A DNA stretch of 64,000 nucleotides, from positions 1 through 64,000 of the forward strand of contig CAWGHO010000002.1 in assembly GCA_963822445.1 (NCBI GenBank). The letters are read 5' to 3'. The notes beneath the pieces are model-generated. The model was not told where the DNA came from, ran no database searches, and saw only the letters and a list, made by a program, of their open reading frames with translations. Position numbers and translations under genes: made by a program. Positions within the stretch are counted from its first letter, which is position 1. The number at the start of each line of letters is the position of its first letter. Shown one piece after another: positions 41,871 through 47,317 of this stretch. Origin of the DNA: an uncultured Acidobacteriota bacterium (GTDB lineage Bacteria > Acidobacteriota > Thermoanaerobaculia > Gp7-AA8).

Positions 41871-43616
41871 ATGAAAGCCGTCCTGTCGAGCCGCTCTAAT
41901 CTCACCTCCTCCAAAGCGCCGACCGGGATCACCGGGCTGGATGAAATTACCGGTGGAGGCCTTCCTCGGGGCCGCACGACGCTGCTCGTCGGAGGATCGG
42001 GATCGGGCAAAACGATCCTCGGCACTGCAGTTTCTCGTTCACGGCGCGAAAGAGTGCGATGAGGCCGGCATCTTTGTCGCGTTCGAAGAGACGCCGTCGC
42101 GAATCGTCGTCGAACGCTGAAACGTTTCGGATGGGATCTCGAGGACCTGCAGAAAAAGAACCTGTACTTCATGGACGCGCAGCCCGCGCCCGATCTCGTA
42201 CAGTCCGGAACGTTCGATCTCAGCGGTATGCTCGCCGCACTGGGCGCGAAGGTCGAAGAAATCGGCGCCACACGCATCGTCTTCGATGCTTTGGACATCA
42301 TGCTGGCGCTGCTGGTCGATCCGACCGCGCAGAGACGCGAGATTTACCGGCTCCATGCCTGGCTGCTGCAGCACGAGCTCACGGGCATCATCACCTTGAA
42401 GGCCGACAGCGACGAGACCGGCTCCGTCAAACAGCCGTTCGGCTTCATGCAGTTCATGGTCGATTGCGCGGTCATCCTCAATCACACCGTCGTGCTCGGC
42501 GTGTCCCAGCGCAACCTGCGCGTCCAGAAATACCGCGGCTCGAGCTTCGATGAAAACGAGTCGCCGTTCCTGATCGGCAAAGGCGGATTCGAAGTCGCCG
42601 TAACCCGAACCCTCGGCCGCGGCGACGCCGAAGTGACGAACGAGCGCGTATCGAGCGGCGTCGCGCGCTTGGACACCATGCTCGGTGGCGGCTATTACCG
42701 CGGTGCTAGTGTGCTCATCACCGGCTTTCCCGGAACTGCGAAAACAACGCTGAGCGGTGCTTTCGCGGAGGCTGCCTGCGCGCGCGGCGAGCGGACGATG
42801 TTCGTCAGCTTCGATTCCGATTCCAACGAAGTAATCCGCAACCTCGGCTCGGTAGGCATCCAGCTCAATCGCTTCGTCGAGGACGGGACGCTGCACATGG
42901 TTTCCGCCCGCACAATCACCGGAAGCGCGGAAACCTACCTCGTGCGCATCAAGACCCTCGCAAAAGCGCATCGCGCGCGTTGCCTGGTCGTCGATCCGGT
43001 TTCGACACTATCGAAATCCGGCAATGAACTGACGGCACACAGTGTCGCGGAACGGCTCATCGACTGGTCCAAGGCCGAAGGAATCACTCTTGTCTGTACA
43101 AGCCTGCTCGATGAGATGTCCAGTCAGTCCGAAGCCGGCTCGCCTCTGCAGATTTCGACACTGGCCGACACCTGGATTCATCTCAATTACCTGGTACAGG
43201 CCGGTGAGCGCAATCGCGGCATGTCCATCATCAAGTCCCGCGGAACGGCGCACTCCAATCAGGTGCGCGAGCTGATTCTCAGCGACGCCGGAATTACAGT
43301 CACAGACGCGTACACGGCCGGCGGCGAAGTGCTCATGGGCACAATGCGCTGGGAAAAGGAAAGCGCCGAGCGTCATGCCTGCGAAATCGCGACGGTCGAG
43401 GCAAAGCTAAGAAGCGTGAAGCTGGAAGCCGAGGAGGCAGAGCTCGAAGCGCGGGTGAAGTCGCTGCAGGTCGAACTGGCGGCCAAGCTCACGGAGAAAG
43501 CGGTCCTGGCGCGAAGTGCTGAGGTTCACGAGCAGGAGTTGCTGCTGGGACGCGACAGAATGCGCGAGTTGCGCGGCAGCGACGTCACGTCAGAGGCTCT
43601 GAGTGTGTCGCGATGA
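41871..43616 (+). CDS. kaiC: KaiC-family ATPase with C-terminal coiled coil; frameshifted near 42030 and 42100-42125
   Basis: KAPTGITGLDEITGGGLPRGRTTLLVGGSGSGKT, VQKYRGSS, RVSSGV..LD.MLGGG, GFPGTAKT, QISTLADTW and IIKSRGTAHSNQVRE. Confidence 0.9.
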
Positions 43617-43963
43617 TCCCAGAGATCTTCACGTTCCGGCTGTACGTCTCCGGTGATGCGCCGAATTCATTGCAGGCCATCGCCAACCTGACCCAGCTCT
43701 GCGAGACGCATCTTCCCGATCGTCATCTGATCGAGATCGTCGACGTGCTGCTCGATCCGAAGCGCGCGCTGACTGAAGCGATTTACATGACGCCGACGCT
43801 GGTCACCGACTCGCCCTATCCCGGCCATCGCATCGTCGGCACGCTCAGCAACACCGAGCCGATCCTGCAGATCCTCGGCCTCGGCGCCGCACAACGGCGT
43901 GTCTTCCCGGGCCTCAAAGACCGGGATTCCGCGCCGCAATTGCGGACGGTCAGCGAGACGTAG
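43613..43963 (+). CDS. kaiB: KaiB-family protein
   Basis: FRLYVSGDAPNSLQAIANL..LCE..L...IEIVDV...TPTLV...RIVGTLS; ATGA overlap with kaiC. Confidence 0.9.
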   Translation: MIPEIFTFRLYVSGDAPNSLQAIANLTQLCETHLPDRHLIEIVDVLLDPKRALTEAIYMTPTLVTDSPYPGHRIVGTLSNTEPILQILGLGAAQRRVFPGLKDRDSAPQLRTVSET

Positions 43964-44040
43964 CGAAGAGCGGTCGTGTCATGAACGGCAGGATGGCGAT
44001 CTTGAGATTCAGCCCGATCACGCTGAAGAGATCCGCCGCA
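43950..44040 (-). pseudogene. Probable C-terminal remnant (ADLFSVIGLNLKIAILPFMTRPLFATSR*) of the gene starting at 46050
   Basis: Coding-like minus-strand stretch ending in TGA immediately left of the REP/IS insertion, on the same strand as the truncated ORF to the right. Confidence 0.5.
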
Positions 44041-44044
44041 GGGA

Positions 44045-44086
44045 CGACGAGAGGCCTCCGGCGGGCCGGCCCGTGGCCGGCCCGCC
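44045..44086. repeat. REP-like palindrome, family E, left part (interrupted by IS110; right part at 45626-45642)
   Basis: Joining the flanks over the CC core gives the perfect palindrome CGACGAGAGGCCTCCGGCGGGCCGGCC-CGT-GGCCGGCCCGCCGGAGGCCTCTCGTCG. Confidence 0.9.
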
Positions 44087-44099
44087 TATAGCTTGTCCG

Positions 44100-44345
44100 G
44101 CCGTCTCTCCGCTTCTCCCTCAGCCCTCAGAGAAGTACCCGTTGGGTGGCAATCGGGAGAATCGGGTTCAGGCGGCGCGATACTGAGAAGAAGGGTTCGT
44201 CCCGCTACGAATTCCGCCCGTGTTCGGATCGACGAATCCCTCCGGACTTTCGAGCGGGACGAAGTGCTTTGGCCCGAAACGCATTCTCAGATGCTGTCGG
44301 AGCACGACTCGACTATAGGCCTTGCGCGCGGCCAAAGCCAACCCG
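44100..44345 (+). ncRNA. Putative IS110 bridge RNA (target-binding loop 44196-44263, donor-binding loop 44266-44338)
   Basis: Two stem/internal-loop/hairpin modules. The loop strands match the target (CCGCCCG; CCTCCGG) and the donor (CTCAGATG; CTATAGG). The 5' and 3' ends are approximate. Confidence 0.8.
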
Positions 44346-44358
44346 AAGGGAGGGTGTG

Positions 44359-45603
44359 ATGAGCGAGTTCGAGTTTGGGGCGTTGGTGGGACTGGATTGG
44401 GGTGACACATCGCACGAGGTGGCTCTTTGGGACGAGCAACAGCAGACGTGCACGAAAGAGCGCATCGAGCACACGCCTGCGGCTCTGCGCGCATGGATCG
44501 AAGCGCTGCAGGTGCGCTTCGGCGGGGCACCGATCGCCGTGGCCATCGAGCAGTCCCGCGGCGCGGTCTTCGACGCGCTCAGCGGCTATCCGTTCGTCAC
44601 GTTGTATCCGATCAACCCACGCAGTGCAGCCCGGTATCGTGAGGCGTTTCATCCGAGCCTTTCGAAAGACGATCCGACCGACGCGGCGTCCTTGCTCGAC
44701 CTGCTTCGTAAGCACCGCAACGAGCTGCGCCCGTTCATCGCCGACGACGCTTCTACGCGTCTGCTGCGGCTTCTGACCGAGGATCGGCGGGAGCTCGTCG
44801 ATCAGAGGACGCAACACGTCCAACGCATGACCGATCGGCTCAAGACGTACTACCCGCAGGCGCTCCGGTGGGCCGGCGCGTTGATTACGGCGCAGGCCTG
44901 TGACTACCTCGAACGCTGGCCGACGCTCGAGGCCATCCAAAGGGCTCGGCCGTCCGCGATAAGGAGGTTCTATGAGCGTTATCATCACGCGGCCGCGTGG
45001 ATCGACCAGAAGCTCGCCGAGATCCGTTCAGAGGTCGCGTTCCACGACGATCAGGTCACCACTGACGCTGCCGTGCTGCTGATCGGAAGCGAGGTTGCGC
45101 AGATCCGGGCTCTCAACGCGAGCATCGCCACGTACGACCAGAAGATCTCGGCGGCGTTCGCCGCCCACCAGGACGCGTCGATCTTCGCGAGCTTCCCTGG
45201 CGCCGGCCAACAGCTCGCGCCGCGGCTCGCCGCCGCCTTCGGGACCGATCGCAAGCGCTTCGGCAGCGCCGTCAACGTCGCCACCCGAAGCGGCATCGCC
45301 CCGGTTCTCCGCCGGAGCGGCAAAACGGCGGTCGTACACATGCGCTGGGCTTGTCCGAAGTTCCTGCGTCAGACGTTCCATGAGTACGCCCGCGTGTCGA
45401 TCGGTCAGTCCCTATGGGCTCGAGCCTTCTACAAGCAGCAACGCGCGCGCGGACACAGCCACCACGAGGCTATCCGCACGCTCGCTTACCGCTGGATCCG
45501 CGTCCTTTACGCCTGCTGGAACAATCGCACCGTCTACGACGAAGCTCTCTATCTGCGGCAGCTCGCCACCCGAGGCTCAACCCTCGCCACAGCTGCTCCC
45601 TGA
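44359..45603 (+). CDS. IS110-family DEDD recombinase/transposase
   Basis: VGLDW (D), AIEQ (E), KDDPTDA (DD); C-terminal FPGAG...SGIAP..RSGK catalytic Ser region; GGAGG RBS. Confidence 0.95.
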   Translation: MSEFEFGALVGLDWGDTSHEVALWDEQQQTCTKERIEHTPAALRAWIEALQVRFGGAPIAVAIEQSRGAVFDALSGYPFVTLYPINPRSAARYREAFHPSLSKDDPTDAASLLDLLRKHRNELRPFIADDASTRLLRLLTEDRRELVDQRTQHVQRMTDRLKTYYPQALRWAGALITAQACDYLERWPTLEAIQRARPSAIRRFYERYHHAAAWIDQKLAEIRSEVAFHDDQVTTDAAVLLIGSEVAQIRALNASIATYDQKISAAFAAHQDASIFASFPGAGQQLAPRLAAAFGTDRKRFGSAVNVATRSGIAPVLRRSGKTAVVHMRWACPKFLRQTFHEYARVSIGQSLWARAFYKQQRARGHSHHEAIRTLAYRWIRVLYACWNNRTVYDEALYLRQLATRGSTLATAAP

Positions 45604-45642
45604 CTTGACAGGAAGGCTCAGATGTCCGGAGGCCTCTCGTCG

Positions 45643-46050
45643 CTGAGCTGCGCGATCATCGCGCGCGCGCTCCACGACTTCCACGGTCGTCAGCGGAATC
45701 GCTCTGTGTCCGCGCGACGTCTCGCGCGATTGCCACGCCGCCTCCTGCCCCATCGTCGCCATCAGCGTGAGGCAACGAACCTCCGGTGCGAGTGGTTCGT
45801 CCCCTGCGGCCGCTCGTGCGAACGCTCGCGACTCCTGATCAAGATCGTCATACGGAACGGTCCTGAAAAACCGCACCAGCGCACATGCCGGCTTACCGGA
45901 GTCGTCAACCAACTCGTCGTAGAAAAAGTGAACGACGCGCTCCGCCGCCTCGGACACAGTCGCCGGAGGCGCGTCGTCGAACAGACCACGAACGCGCGTC
46001 CGGCAATCCATCATGTCGGTGAAACCGAACGTGCGGAGGCGATAGGGCAT
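45643..46050 (-). pseudogene. Truncated hypothetical gene (N-terminal part) cut at the REP/IS110 site
   Basis: Coding-like MPYRLRTF...ACALVRFFRT...CLTLMAT.G....W.SR..SRGHRAIPL, which then runs into the palindrome. Confidence 0.6.
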
Positions 46051-46081
46051 CGCGGCAAAGTTAGCACGCCGCCAACCTGCG

Positions 46082-47317
46082 TCACTCGATGTACGCGAAC
46101 CCGATCCGCAGCGCTCCCCGGCTGTACCGCCTCATCCACGACGCCGAGGCCTCGTACGAAGTGTCAGTGATGTCAGAGAACCTCTCGCGGTCCCGCCCGT
46201 CGGCCTGGCGCAACACCACGCCGCCCTTCAGCTCGACGTACGAGCCGCGGATCTTTCTCGTGTATCCGCCCTGGATCAGCTCGAAGGAAGGCTCCCAGCG
46301 CAGGTCGCCGGAAAGGTTGTCCGGATTCTGCCGCGAGTGAACGCGCGCCCATCCCGCCACGAGCTCCGTCGAAAACGAGCTCGCGTCGGAGATCTGCCAA
46401 TGCCGCTCGGCAGACACGTCGAGTCCGTGGGCGGTGGAGTGGCGGGCGATGGTCGTGAATGGCTGGCCGGGGCGGCCGGTGAAGGACGTCTGCTCGCCCA
46501 TCCAGACGAACGGCTCGACCTTCACGAACGTCCCTCGCATCGGCGTGTACGGCTCGTTGGTCGTGTCGAACGTCCAGGACGCGGACAGCATCCGTTCGGT
46601 ATGAAGATCGCGCAAAGGTGTGCCGCCGATGCGGACCGTGCCTTTGACGAAGGTCGTGTCCTCGATTTCGAGCCGCAGCGTCTGATTGGCCGTCACCGGC
46701 AGGCCTACGACGACCTCCGGCGAGAACGTCTTCTCTTCCAGCGAATCGACCGGGCTGCGCACGATCACCGTCGCGAAAACCGGCGTGCCCACGATCTGGT
46801 GACGGGTGTAGCCGAGCTCCCACGCGGAGTAGTTCTTGCGAAACGGATGGCGATTGCGAAGCACGGTCATGCCGAAGTGGGCCAGGCCGCCGTCGCCGAA
46901 CAGCCACCGCACACCAGCGGCCGCATGCTTCCAGTCCGAGGTGGGATCGGGGAACTCGTAGTCGAGCATGTCCACCGGCTGGTTTACCTGGCCGAAACGG
47001 CCGTCGAGGAGAAACCAGAACCGATCGTTCTCCCGGACGCTGATGACCACGACCCGGCGTGTATCGTCCGATCCCGGCTCGAGCGCGTAGCCGGCAGTGA
47101 AGACGGAGGGCGATCGCATCAGCCGGCGCACTCCGGCCCGCACATCCTCTTCCGAGACCTCGCTTCCTTCGCGGAGCAGCGTCTCCGCGGCCAGGAACTG
47201 CGCGTCGACGCGCTGCGCGTTGCGGATCTCGACGCGCTCGATCGTGAATCGCTCCTGGGAACGGGCGGAAAGCGCACACGTGATCAAACAGACAGCAATC
47301 AGAATTCGCCGGATCAT
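46082..47317 (-). CDS. Secreted/outer-membrane protein with POTRA-like N-domain (Omp85-like)
   Basis: Signal peptide, IERVEIRN...VRRLMRSPSVF...VVISVRE POTRA pattern, amphipathic beta-strands. Confidence 0.65.
   Translation of the reverse strand: MIRRILIAVCLITCALSARSQERFTIERVEIRNAQRVDAQFLAAETLLREGSEVSEEDVRAGVRRLMRSPSVFTAGYALEPGSDDTRRVVVISVRENDRFWFLLDGRFGQVNQPVDMLDYEFPDPTSDWKHAAAGVRWLFGDGGLAHFGMTVLRNRHPFRKNYSAWELGYTRHQIVGTPVFATVIVRSPVDSLEEKTFSPEVVVGLPVTANQTLRLEIEDTTFVKGTVRIGGTPLRDLHTERMLSASWTFDTTNEPYTPMRGTFVKVEPFVWMGEQTSFTGRPGQPFTTIARHSTAHGLDVSAERHWQISDASSFSTELVAGWARVHSRQNPDNLSGDLRWEPSFELIQGGYTRKIRGSYVELKGGVVLRQADGRDRERFSDITDTSYEASASWMRRYSRGALRIGFAYIE

Follow-up and report, generated by a model that had tools for sequence, protein, structure and literature searches.

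A complete, probably mobile IS110-group element with a predicted bridge RNA and a CC core in an uncultured Acidobacteriota bacterium

Features of the locus

The window analysed here, a stretch of 64,000 nucleotides (nt) from an uncultured Acidobacteriota bacterium (contig CAWGHO010000002.1), carries between positions 44087 and 45625 an insertion sequence of 1539 bp that belongs to the IS110 group and is flanked by CC on each side (44085-86 / 45626-27). All coordinates are positions in this window on the forward strand. We consider it highly probable that this is a complete, probably still mobile element that chooses its target by its own bridge RNA. The reading goes back to a prediction made from the letters of the window alone (the original prediction) and is carried here by nine near-identical genomic copies, by covarying RNA stems and by guide loops that change together with the flanks of related elements.

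The element is composed of a 272-nt non-coding left end, one gene of 414 amino acids (aa) and a 22-nt right end. It has no terminal inverted repeats, and only the 2-nt CC core is duplicated at the junctions. Fusing the flanks at a single CC restores a perfect inverted repeat whose 27-nt arms (the left one at 44045-44071) enclose a 3-nt loop (CGT). The core and the palindrome lie where the original prediction had placed them. The restored window site is a 57-bp perfect hairpin between convergent genes. Neighbours of the insertion site are a kaiC/kaiB pair (42171-43963, plus strand) and an unassigned convergent open reading frame (45577-46050, minus strand). The features of the locus are as follows.

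44045..44086, no strand: left part of the host palindrome, with left arm (44045-71), loop (44072-74) and the 12 nt that begin the right arm, including the left target CGGCCCG (44078-84) and CC (44085-86)
44087..45625, plus strand: IS110-group insertion sequence, with 9 full-length genomic copies and identical junctions
44087..44092, plus strand: TATAGC, the first six bases of the left end, -10-like; TATAG- begins the left end in most orthologues, and the role is proposed from IS621
44093..44195, plus strand: presumed 5' part of the transcript with a possible 5' stem-loop (RNAalifold, 5 close relatives)
44196..44263, plus strand: target-binding module (motif positions, fold, covariation, guide/flank tests)
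44266..44338, plus strand: donor-binding module (motif positions, fold, covariation)
44346-54: ribosome-site-like AAGGGAGGG upstream of the recombinase gene
44359..45603, plus strand: recombinase gene, 414 aa, with DEDD RuvC-like and Tnp domains (profiles, orthologues, predicted structure)
45604..45625, plus strand: right end, 22 nt, with TTGACA (45605-10, -35-like) and the left donor CTCAGATGT (45617-25)
45626..45642, no strand: right part of the host palindrome, with the CC core at 45626-27, the right target GGAGG at 45628-32 and what remains of the right arm

Genomic copies and host repeat

The host genome (~6.0 Mb, 3 contigs) contains nine full-length copies of the element at 96-100% identity. 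The junctions of all nine read ..GCC(G)GCCCG-CC|TATAGC...CAGATGT|CC-GGAGGC, and the CC core proposed in the original prediction is thus present at both junctions of every intact copy. The 414-aa frame and identical guide loops are likewise kept in 9/9. The same insertion site is used in all ten copies that retain both ends, which agrees with the suggestion that other copies should sit at the same position of the host repeat. The left target is CGGCCCG, which agrees with the loop at 6/7 positions, in six of the nine intact copies, and CCGCCCG, which agrees at 7/7, in the other three. Unoccupied GCCCGCCGGAGG sites number 41 against 8.3 expected from base composition, and in 40 of these 41 repeat-type sequence lies just upstream of the motif. 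No preference for the 7/7 target was found in this genome, the ratio of occupied to empty sites being 3/8 for CCGCCCG and 7/32 for CGGCCCG (Fisher p = 0.67).

For eight of the nine intact insertions the site is not a simple hairpin but one of the two terminal inverted repeats that bound a composite palindromic repeat. The composite repeat holds two inverted target motifs whose starts are 100-130 bp apart, and we estimate its whole length at roughly 150 bp, comparable to a miniature inverted-repeat transposable element. Relative to the insertion, its centre can face either way. The window flanks and the 160 bases left of the eight other copies (L002-L009) delineate its ends, which are terminal inverted repeats (GGGAACGACGAGGGGCCTCCGGCGGGCC...) with a small GC hairpin at each end; every target is located at the foot of such a short hairpin (GCCGGCC-CGT-GGCCGGC). 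In the genome we counted 22 composite repeats that are intact and carry both inverted target sites, and not one empty short-form hairpin. The window site is the sole short form, and with its two ends abutting it looks like a deletion derivative of the composite repeat.

The original prediction had named the target a repetitive extragenic palindrome (REP). A classical REP/RAYT reading of the host repeat was considered and is not supported: the repeat's target motif was found within 1.5 kb of none of the four genome matches to Y1-transposase genes (RAYT-type, PF01797). Since eight of nine insertions lie in the ~150-bp composite and the Y1-transposase matches have no repeat nearby, the term is acceptable for the loose meaning of a repeated extragenic palindrome only.

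Two rearranged relatives of the element occur in the same genome. The tenth copy (contig 3, 469301-470839) occupies the same target site and carries an internal inversion of 161 bp (element positions 415-575) between short inverted TCGAA-type repeats; its gene is broken, with three in-frame TGA codons. On contig 1 (940359-941429) two right-end fragments stand head to head (element positions 847-1539 and 1161-1539), both facing outward into CCGGAGGCC. This arrangement would result if both inverted sites of a single host repeat had received a copy and an internal deletion had come later.

Predicted structure of the left-end RNA

The left end encodes two stem/internal-loop modules. The outer stem of module 1 (44196-206 / 44253-263) is followed by a bulged A (44207) and an inner helix (CGAA 44208-11 / TTCG 44249-52), and its inner hairpin spans 44223-36 (TTCG 44223-26 / CGAA 44233-36). 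Module 2 has an outer stem at 44266-74 / 44330-38, an inner helix at 44280-83 / 44323-26 and an inner hairpin at 44296-308 (GTCG 44296-99 / CGAC 44305-08). Both modules, with their stems and loop motifs, were recovered at the positions given in the original prediction. The stretch 44190-44342 folds into both modules with z = -3.31, and none of 200 shuffles folded as well; the longer stretch 44160-44362 gave z = -1.4, which is not significant.

From 75 related loci that were collected, the RNA region of 33 orthologues was aligned. The RNAalifold consensus contains an outer stem and an inner helix of 3-4 bp in each module. These were the elements scored for covariation, the inner hairpins being variable in length and outside the alignment. 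Compensatory changes occur in 20 of the 24 predicted pairs, paired cells amount to 90.6% against 69.4% in shuffles, and the covariation score of 0.547 (0.188 in shuffles) was reached by 0/500. When the registers were slid by 1-3 columns, paired cells dropped to 32-49%. The folding and covariation check that the original prediction had proposed across homologues therefore supports the stems.

A 5' stem-loop may precede the first module: RNAalifold on 5 close relatives predicts 30 pairs there, one of them with a compensatory change, which supports it weakly. In two loci from metagenome-assembled genomes (MAGs) of Vicinamibacterales, L029 and L033, the TATAG end and the donor-loop anchor are 285-298 nt apart, compared with 148-155 nt in sister copies, and their left ends therefore hold ~135-150 bp of extra DNA upstream of the first module.

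Guide loops and their target sites

Under the strand rule described for IS621, in which the core lies within all four pairings (Durrant 2024, PMC11208160), the loops of the two modules can be read as four guides.

Left target guide: CCGCCCG at 44214-20, with the sense of the left target
Right target guide: CCUCCGG at 44239-45, the reverse complement of CC+GGAGG
Left donor guide: CUCAGAUG at 44286-93, with the sense of the right end at 45617-24
Right donor guide: CUAUAGG at 44313-19, the reverse complement of CC+TATAG

The donor loop had been called identical to the right end of the element. In DNA form, CTCAGATG (44286-93) equals 45617-24, and the identity stops one base before the end, the last base T (45625) being outside the match. 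The right guides of about 7 nt named in the original prediction are confirmed when the core is counted in, and they fall within the 4-7 nt published for IS110 elements (Durrant 2024, PMC11208160). In dinucleotide shuffles of the left end, matches as good arise by chance in 68% (left target, with at most one mismatch), 5.8% (right target), 0.2% (left donor) and 0.4% (right donor) of cases, and all four together in 0/5000.

Guides and flanks were then compared between related elements. The boundaries of the orthologues were located from the donor loop only, and the target loops were scored against the flanks thus defined, using one representative for each of 16 target classes. A guide matches its own flank at 96 of 112 positions on the left and at 107 of 112 on the right. 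Permuted pairings of guides and flanks average 59.6 (left) and 62.3 (right), and 0/100,000 permutations reached the observed sums. Individual cases show the same at finer scale. The Vicinamibacterales elements (51% protein identity) have nearly the same ends and a CC core and occupy the site ..ACCTCC(C)-CC-ATGCC..; their target loops read ACCUCCCC and GGCAUGG and fit their own flanks. A sister type has the target ..CTCGC-CC and the loop ..CUCGCCC, so that a one-base difference in the target is mirrored in the loop, and locus L019 (82% identity) has the target ..GGCCG-CC and the loop ..GGCCGCC. The strand logic, the covarying stems and the covariation of guides with flanks in 16 classes together uphold the layout originally proposed, a target loop followed by a donor loop as in IS621-type bridge RNAs.

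The core varies between classes. At the left junction it is CT in 9 of the 16, CC in 2, AT in 2, and TT, AA and GT in one each; thirteen of the 16 classes thus have T as their second core base, which makes the CC lineages unusual. In each of the 16 classes the right guides track the core. Directly after each right guide stand two bases that correspond to the handshake bases of IS621, which pair with the partner on its left side after strand exchange (Hiraizumi 2024, PMC11208158). In the window the target-loop handshake AC (44246-47) is complementary to the final two bases of the right end (GT, 45624-25), and the first base of the donor-loop handshake CC (44320-21) is complementary to the final base of the left target. 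Across the 16 classes Watson-Crick pairs were counted in 24/32 positions for the target-loop handshake (0/20,000 shuffles) and in 18/32 for the donor-loop handshake (3/20,000 shuffles).

Two side observations concern the same loops. Four Colwellia-type loci (L046, L047, L048 and L073) have CT at the left and GT at the right junction, with a right target guide that predicts CT; the unlike dinucleotides may be the heteroduplex outcome of recombination between unlike cores. A contig from a soil metagenome (run X5) carries a related element whose changes cluster at 44213-15, 44221-22 and 44224-35. They fall in the left target guide and in the inner hairpin of module 1, and the resulting guide type is that of L015 and L020.

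Recombinase and putative junction promoter

The gene product matches PF01548 (DEDD_Tnp_IS110, 4.2e-28) and PF02371 (Transposase_20, 5.1e-11), both above the curated cut-offs, and narrowly passes NF033542, 'IS110 family RNA-guided transposase', with 141.8 bits at a cut-off of 140. None of the residues D13, E64, D105, D108 and S320 varies among 15 orthologues (40-89% identity). The D-x-x-D motif is spaced like D102/D105 in IS621, and in the alignment with ISCro4 S320 falls on the Ser of the ESG motif. From these alignments the five residues are the probable catalytic ones. With the 414-aa frame, the conserved DEDD/Ser residues and both ends kept, the element is as intact as it had appeared to be in the original prediction. 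A GTG-started frame at 44146-45603 (485 aa) was rejected as the gene, as the alignments with orthologues begin at ATG 44359, after the ribosome-site-like motif.

An AlphaFold model of the protein has a mean predicted confidence (pLDDT) of 88.8. Its ten best matches in the PDB are all chains of IS621 or ISCro4, with E values from 5.5e-12 to 3.6e-11, template modelling (TM) scores normalized to the target of 0.72-0.76 and 16-19% identity; the best are IS621 8wt6 (E 5.5e-12, TM 0.73) and ISCro4 9t56 (TM 0.76). The next matches are TIGR-Tas and Nop5 proteins. The protein has 414 aa, compared with 305-319 modelled residues in the solved entries and 341 for the full ISCro4 chain sequence, and by the predicted secondary structure the extra length probably sits in the helical region between the two catalytic domains. 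The closest relatives (82-89% protein identity) come from Thermoanaerobaculia MAGs and one Longimicrobiales MAG. Multi-copy relatives at 51% identity belong to Vicinamibacterales, and relatives at 37-49% occur in Pyrinomonadaceae, Planctomycetota, relatives of Colwellia and more.

Only when the two ends of the element are joined over one CC does TTGACA (45605-10) come to stand 17 nt upstream of TATAGC (44087-92). Of 32 orthologues, 25 have a hexamer with a match of at least 5/6 to TTGACA, located 6-7 nt before CTCAG. In the integrated copy a single promoter-like match was found in the region. It lies on the minus strand (44312-44341; TTGGCT, 18 nt, TATAGT), overlaps the right donor guide and probably arises because this guide complements the -10-like left end.

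Proposed mechanism and alternatives

Transcription of the bridge RNA, formation of a circle, RNA binding and recombination are proposed by analogy with the known systems. As in IS621, the element would leave as a circle, in which the two ends, meeting at a single CC, would assemble the promoter. This junction promoter would transcribe the left end and the recombinase gene, and the left-end RNA is predicted to fold into the two modules. The first would read the host site and the second the joined ends of the element, pairing CUCAGAUG with the right end and CUAUAGG with CC + TATAG. The 414-aa DEDD/Ser recombinase would exchange the strands at CC, after which the two handshake bases behind each right guide would be able to pair with the partner DNA.

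A number of results weigh against this account of a mobile, bridge-RNA-guided element. The -10 hexamer is weak, TATAGC matching the consensus at 4/6 positions and without the final T, and a promoter scan of the integrated copy gave no plus-strand site. An Rfam scan of 43500-46200 (E up to 1) gave no family matching the left end; its sole match was a chance-level one to a Burkholderia small RNA inside the gene. By sequence, the only solved relative found for the protein was ISCro4 (E = 2e-4). The contigs of four soil metagenome runs gave fragments of related elements and no joints, circle junction or empty site, such contigs being unable to show rare circles, and among the listed public sequencing runs none is recorded as RNA. 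The 6/7 match of the left target guide in the window arises by chance in 68% of shuffles. Being insignificant alone, this match needs outside support from other copies and from orthologues; the predicted 6/7 match is present, and rises to 7/7 in 3/9 copies. The orthologue test has its own gaps. Usable flanks were available in 27 of 33 orthologues, with L038, L041 and L055 dropped for short flanks and L043, L051 and L066 because the boundary was not found; the own guide is strictly the best of 16 for 11 of 16 left flanks and 13 of 16 right flanks; and class L058 scores 4/7 on the left. Finally, both left guides of the window carry UG at the core positions (44221-22 and 44295-96), where CC would be needed, and against the bottom strand this makes one U.G wobble and one G.G mismatch. 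In the window copy the right guides thus pair with the CC core and the left guides do not. Because close relatives carry CC, CA or UG at these positions, pairing of the core by the left guides appears to be dispensable in this subgroup. Pairing by all four guides characterizes IS621 and is not required of the family.

Several of these points could also be read as the signs of a relic, an IS110 lineage that spread in the past and moves no longer, its matches between RNA and targets being fossils of former activity. Neither RNA nor a circle junction or empty site turned up in the public runs, the match of the hexamer to a -10 is weak, core pairing, for which the relatives L016 and L019 keep CC, is gone from the left guides, and two copies in the genome are rearranged and broken. 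Yet the public runs are soil metagenome contigs, in which rare circles cannot be seen, and nine copies at 96-100% identity all retain the 414-aa frame, the catalytic residues and identical guide loops. Nine near-identical intact copies point to recent spread, and we regard a relic as improbable. Less probable still, to a degree that leaves it little room, is the view that the protein, or the host repeat through its hairpin shape, does most of the target choice, with the loop complementarity minor or coincidental. Every insertion does lie at the foot of a short GC hairpin inside a palindromic repeat, the left-guide match in the window is not significant alone, and the target stem-loop of ISPpu10 is reported to act together with base pairing (bioRxiv 10.64898/2026.03.19.712850). 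Against this, guides change with targets across 16 classes that have similar ends, with 0/100,000 permutations as good, and where two Vicinamibacterales sister types differ by one base in the target, their loops differ by one base to match. A structural contribution of the hairpin in addition to pairing is possible.

Comparison with known systems

The element described here shares most of its organization with IS621 and IS622/ISCro4. Common to them are a long left and a short right end, a 2-nt core that occurs once in the donor and once in the target, and a -35 hexamer in the right and a -10 hexamer in the left end (those of the window being predicted). The RNA has the same order of 5' region, target loop and donor loop, with a 3' strand that reads the top strand, core plus right side, and with two handshake bases after each right guide. 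The proteins have the DEDD and Ser residues and, judged from the predicted model, the same fold (TM 0.73-0.76), and the reported natural targets are again palindromic repeats. The element differs from IS621 and IS622/ISCro4 in sequence (~17% identity in the structural alignment), in the length of its protein, whose 414 aa exceed the solved chains, and in its left end of 272 nt with ~100 nt ahead of the first module. Unlike IS621, it has a CC instead of a CT core, and the core is read by the right guides only, the left guides of the window having UG there, whereas all four guides of IS621 are described as pairing with it. Core changes tried in IS621 concerned the first base only and worked less well, as given by Durrant 2024 (PMC11208160).

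ISPpu10 and ISPpu9 of Pseudomonas putida, compared here by their description (bioRxiv 10.64898/2026.03.19.712850; PMC12288879), are likewise multi-copy elements at one position of a repeated extragenic palindrome. Many of the targets in the genome that holds them are empty and often arranged in convergent pairs, and they have a junction promoter such as is predicted for the element here. A natural G.G mismatch is reported for the donor interface of ISPpu10 (bioRxiv 10.64898/2026.03.19.712850), and it resembles the window, where the second core base has its bottom-strand G opposite G 44296. The core of ISPpu10 is reported as CT, in contrast to CC here, and the host repeat here is a ~150-bp composite with two inverted target sites rather than the short REP described for ISPpu10 and ISPpu9. 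With the IS1111 group and its seekRNA (Siddiquee 2024, PMC11187229) the element has in common a DEDD recombinase guided by an RNA from a non-coding end; the IS1111 elements are described with the guide RNA in a long right end and with subterminal inverted repeats, and the layout in the window is the opposite.

The element is a well-supported new example of the known bridge-RNA recombinases and not a new kind of system or mechanism, because bridge RNAs, guide/target covariation and REP targeting have already been published for IS110 elements. Bridge RNAs were predicted in 85.7% of the catalogued IS110-group elements, with guide/target covariation over thousands of them (Durrant 2024, PMC11208160), and the targeting of REPs is on record for IS621, ISPpu9 and ISPpu10. 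The CC core is its one unusual trait. A literature search gave no paper that pairs 'CC core' with 'bridge RNA', which is no proof of novelty; the supplementary lists of Durrant 2024 and Perry 2025 (thousands of IS110 elements, 72 tested orthologues) may include members with a CC core. The varied cores of the 16 classes, tracked by the right guides, together with the C at the second core position of the window and the dropped core pairing of its left guides, hint at a further point that we raise tentatively: the clade of ~410-aa bridge recombinases to which the element belongs might not read the core itself, which would then be set by the RNA of the right guides only. Should this somewhat doubtful idea be true, members like the present one would offer natural starting points for bridge editing at sites without the T-ending core of IS621/IS622.

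The locus adds a complete natural bridge-RNA system, predicted from sequence, from a poorly studied lineage, its nearest relatives being found in MAGs of Thermoanaerobaculia and other Acidobacteriota. A single genome supplies ten insertions and 41 empty sites, and the relatives show natural re-programming of the target loop at single-base resolution. The CC core and the unpaired core positions of the left guides set the element apart from the CT-core systems used for editing. For annotation, it explains a repeated 1.5-kb element and the split palindromes that adjoin it.

Further observations

Directly upstream of the insertion (42171-43963), a kaiC-like gene (481 aa, PF06745) overlaps the start of kaiB (116 aa, PF07689); the hairpin that was split by the element may have been the terminator of this pair. 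The genome also contains a second, unrelated IS110-family element of 1462 bp in three identical copies on contigs 1 and 3 (L090:1350-2811, L091 and L092). It scores 228.9 bits with NF033542, has flanks unlike the host repeat described above, and owes its IS1111-like layout to a short left end, subterminal inverted repeats and ~330 nt of right end. A further, weaker IS110-family match is located on contig 1 at 95634-96518.

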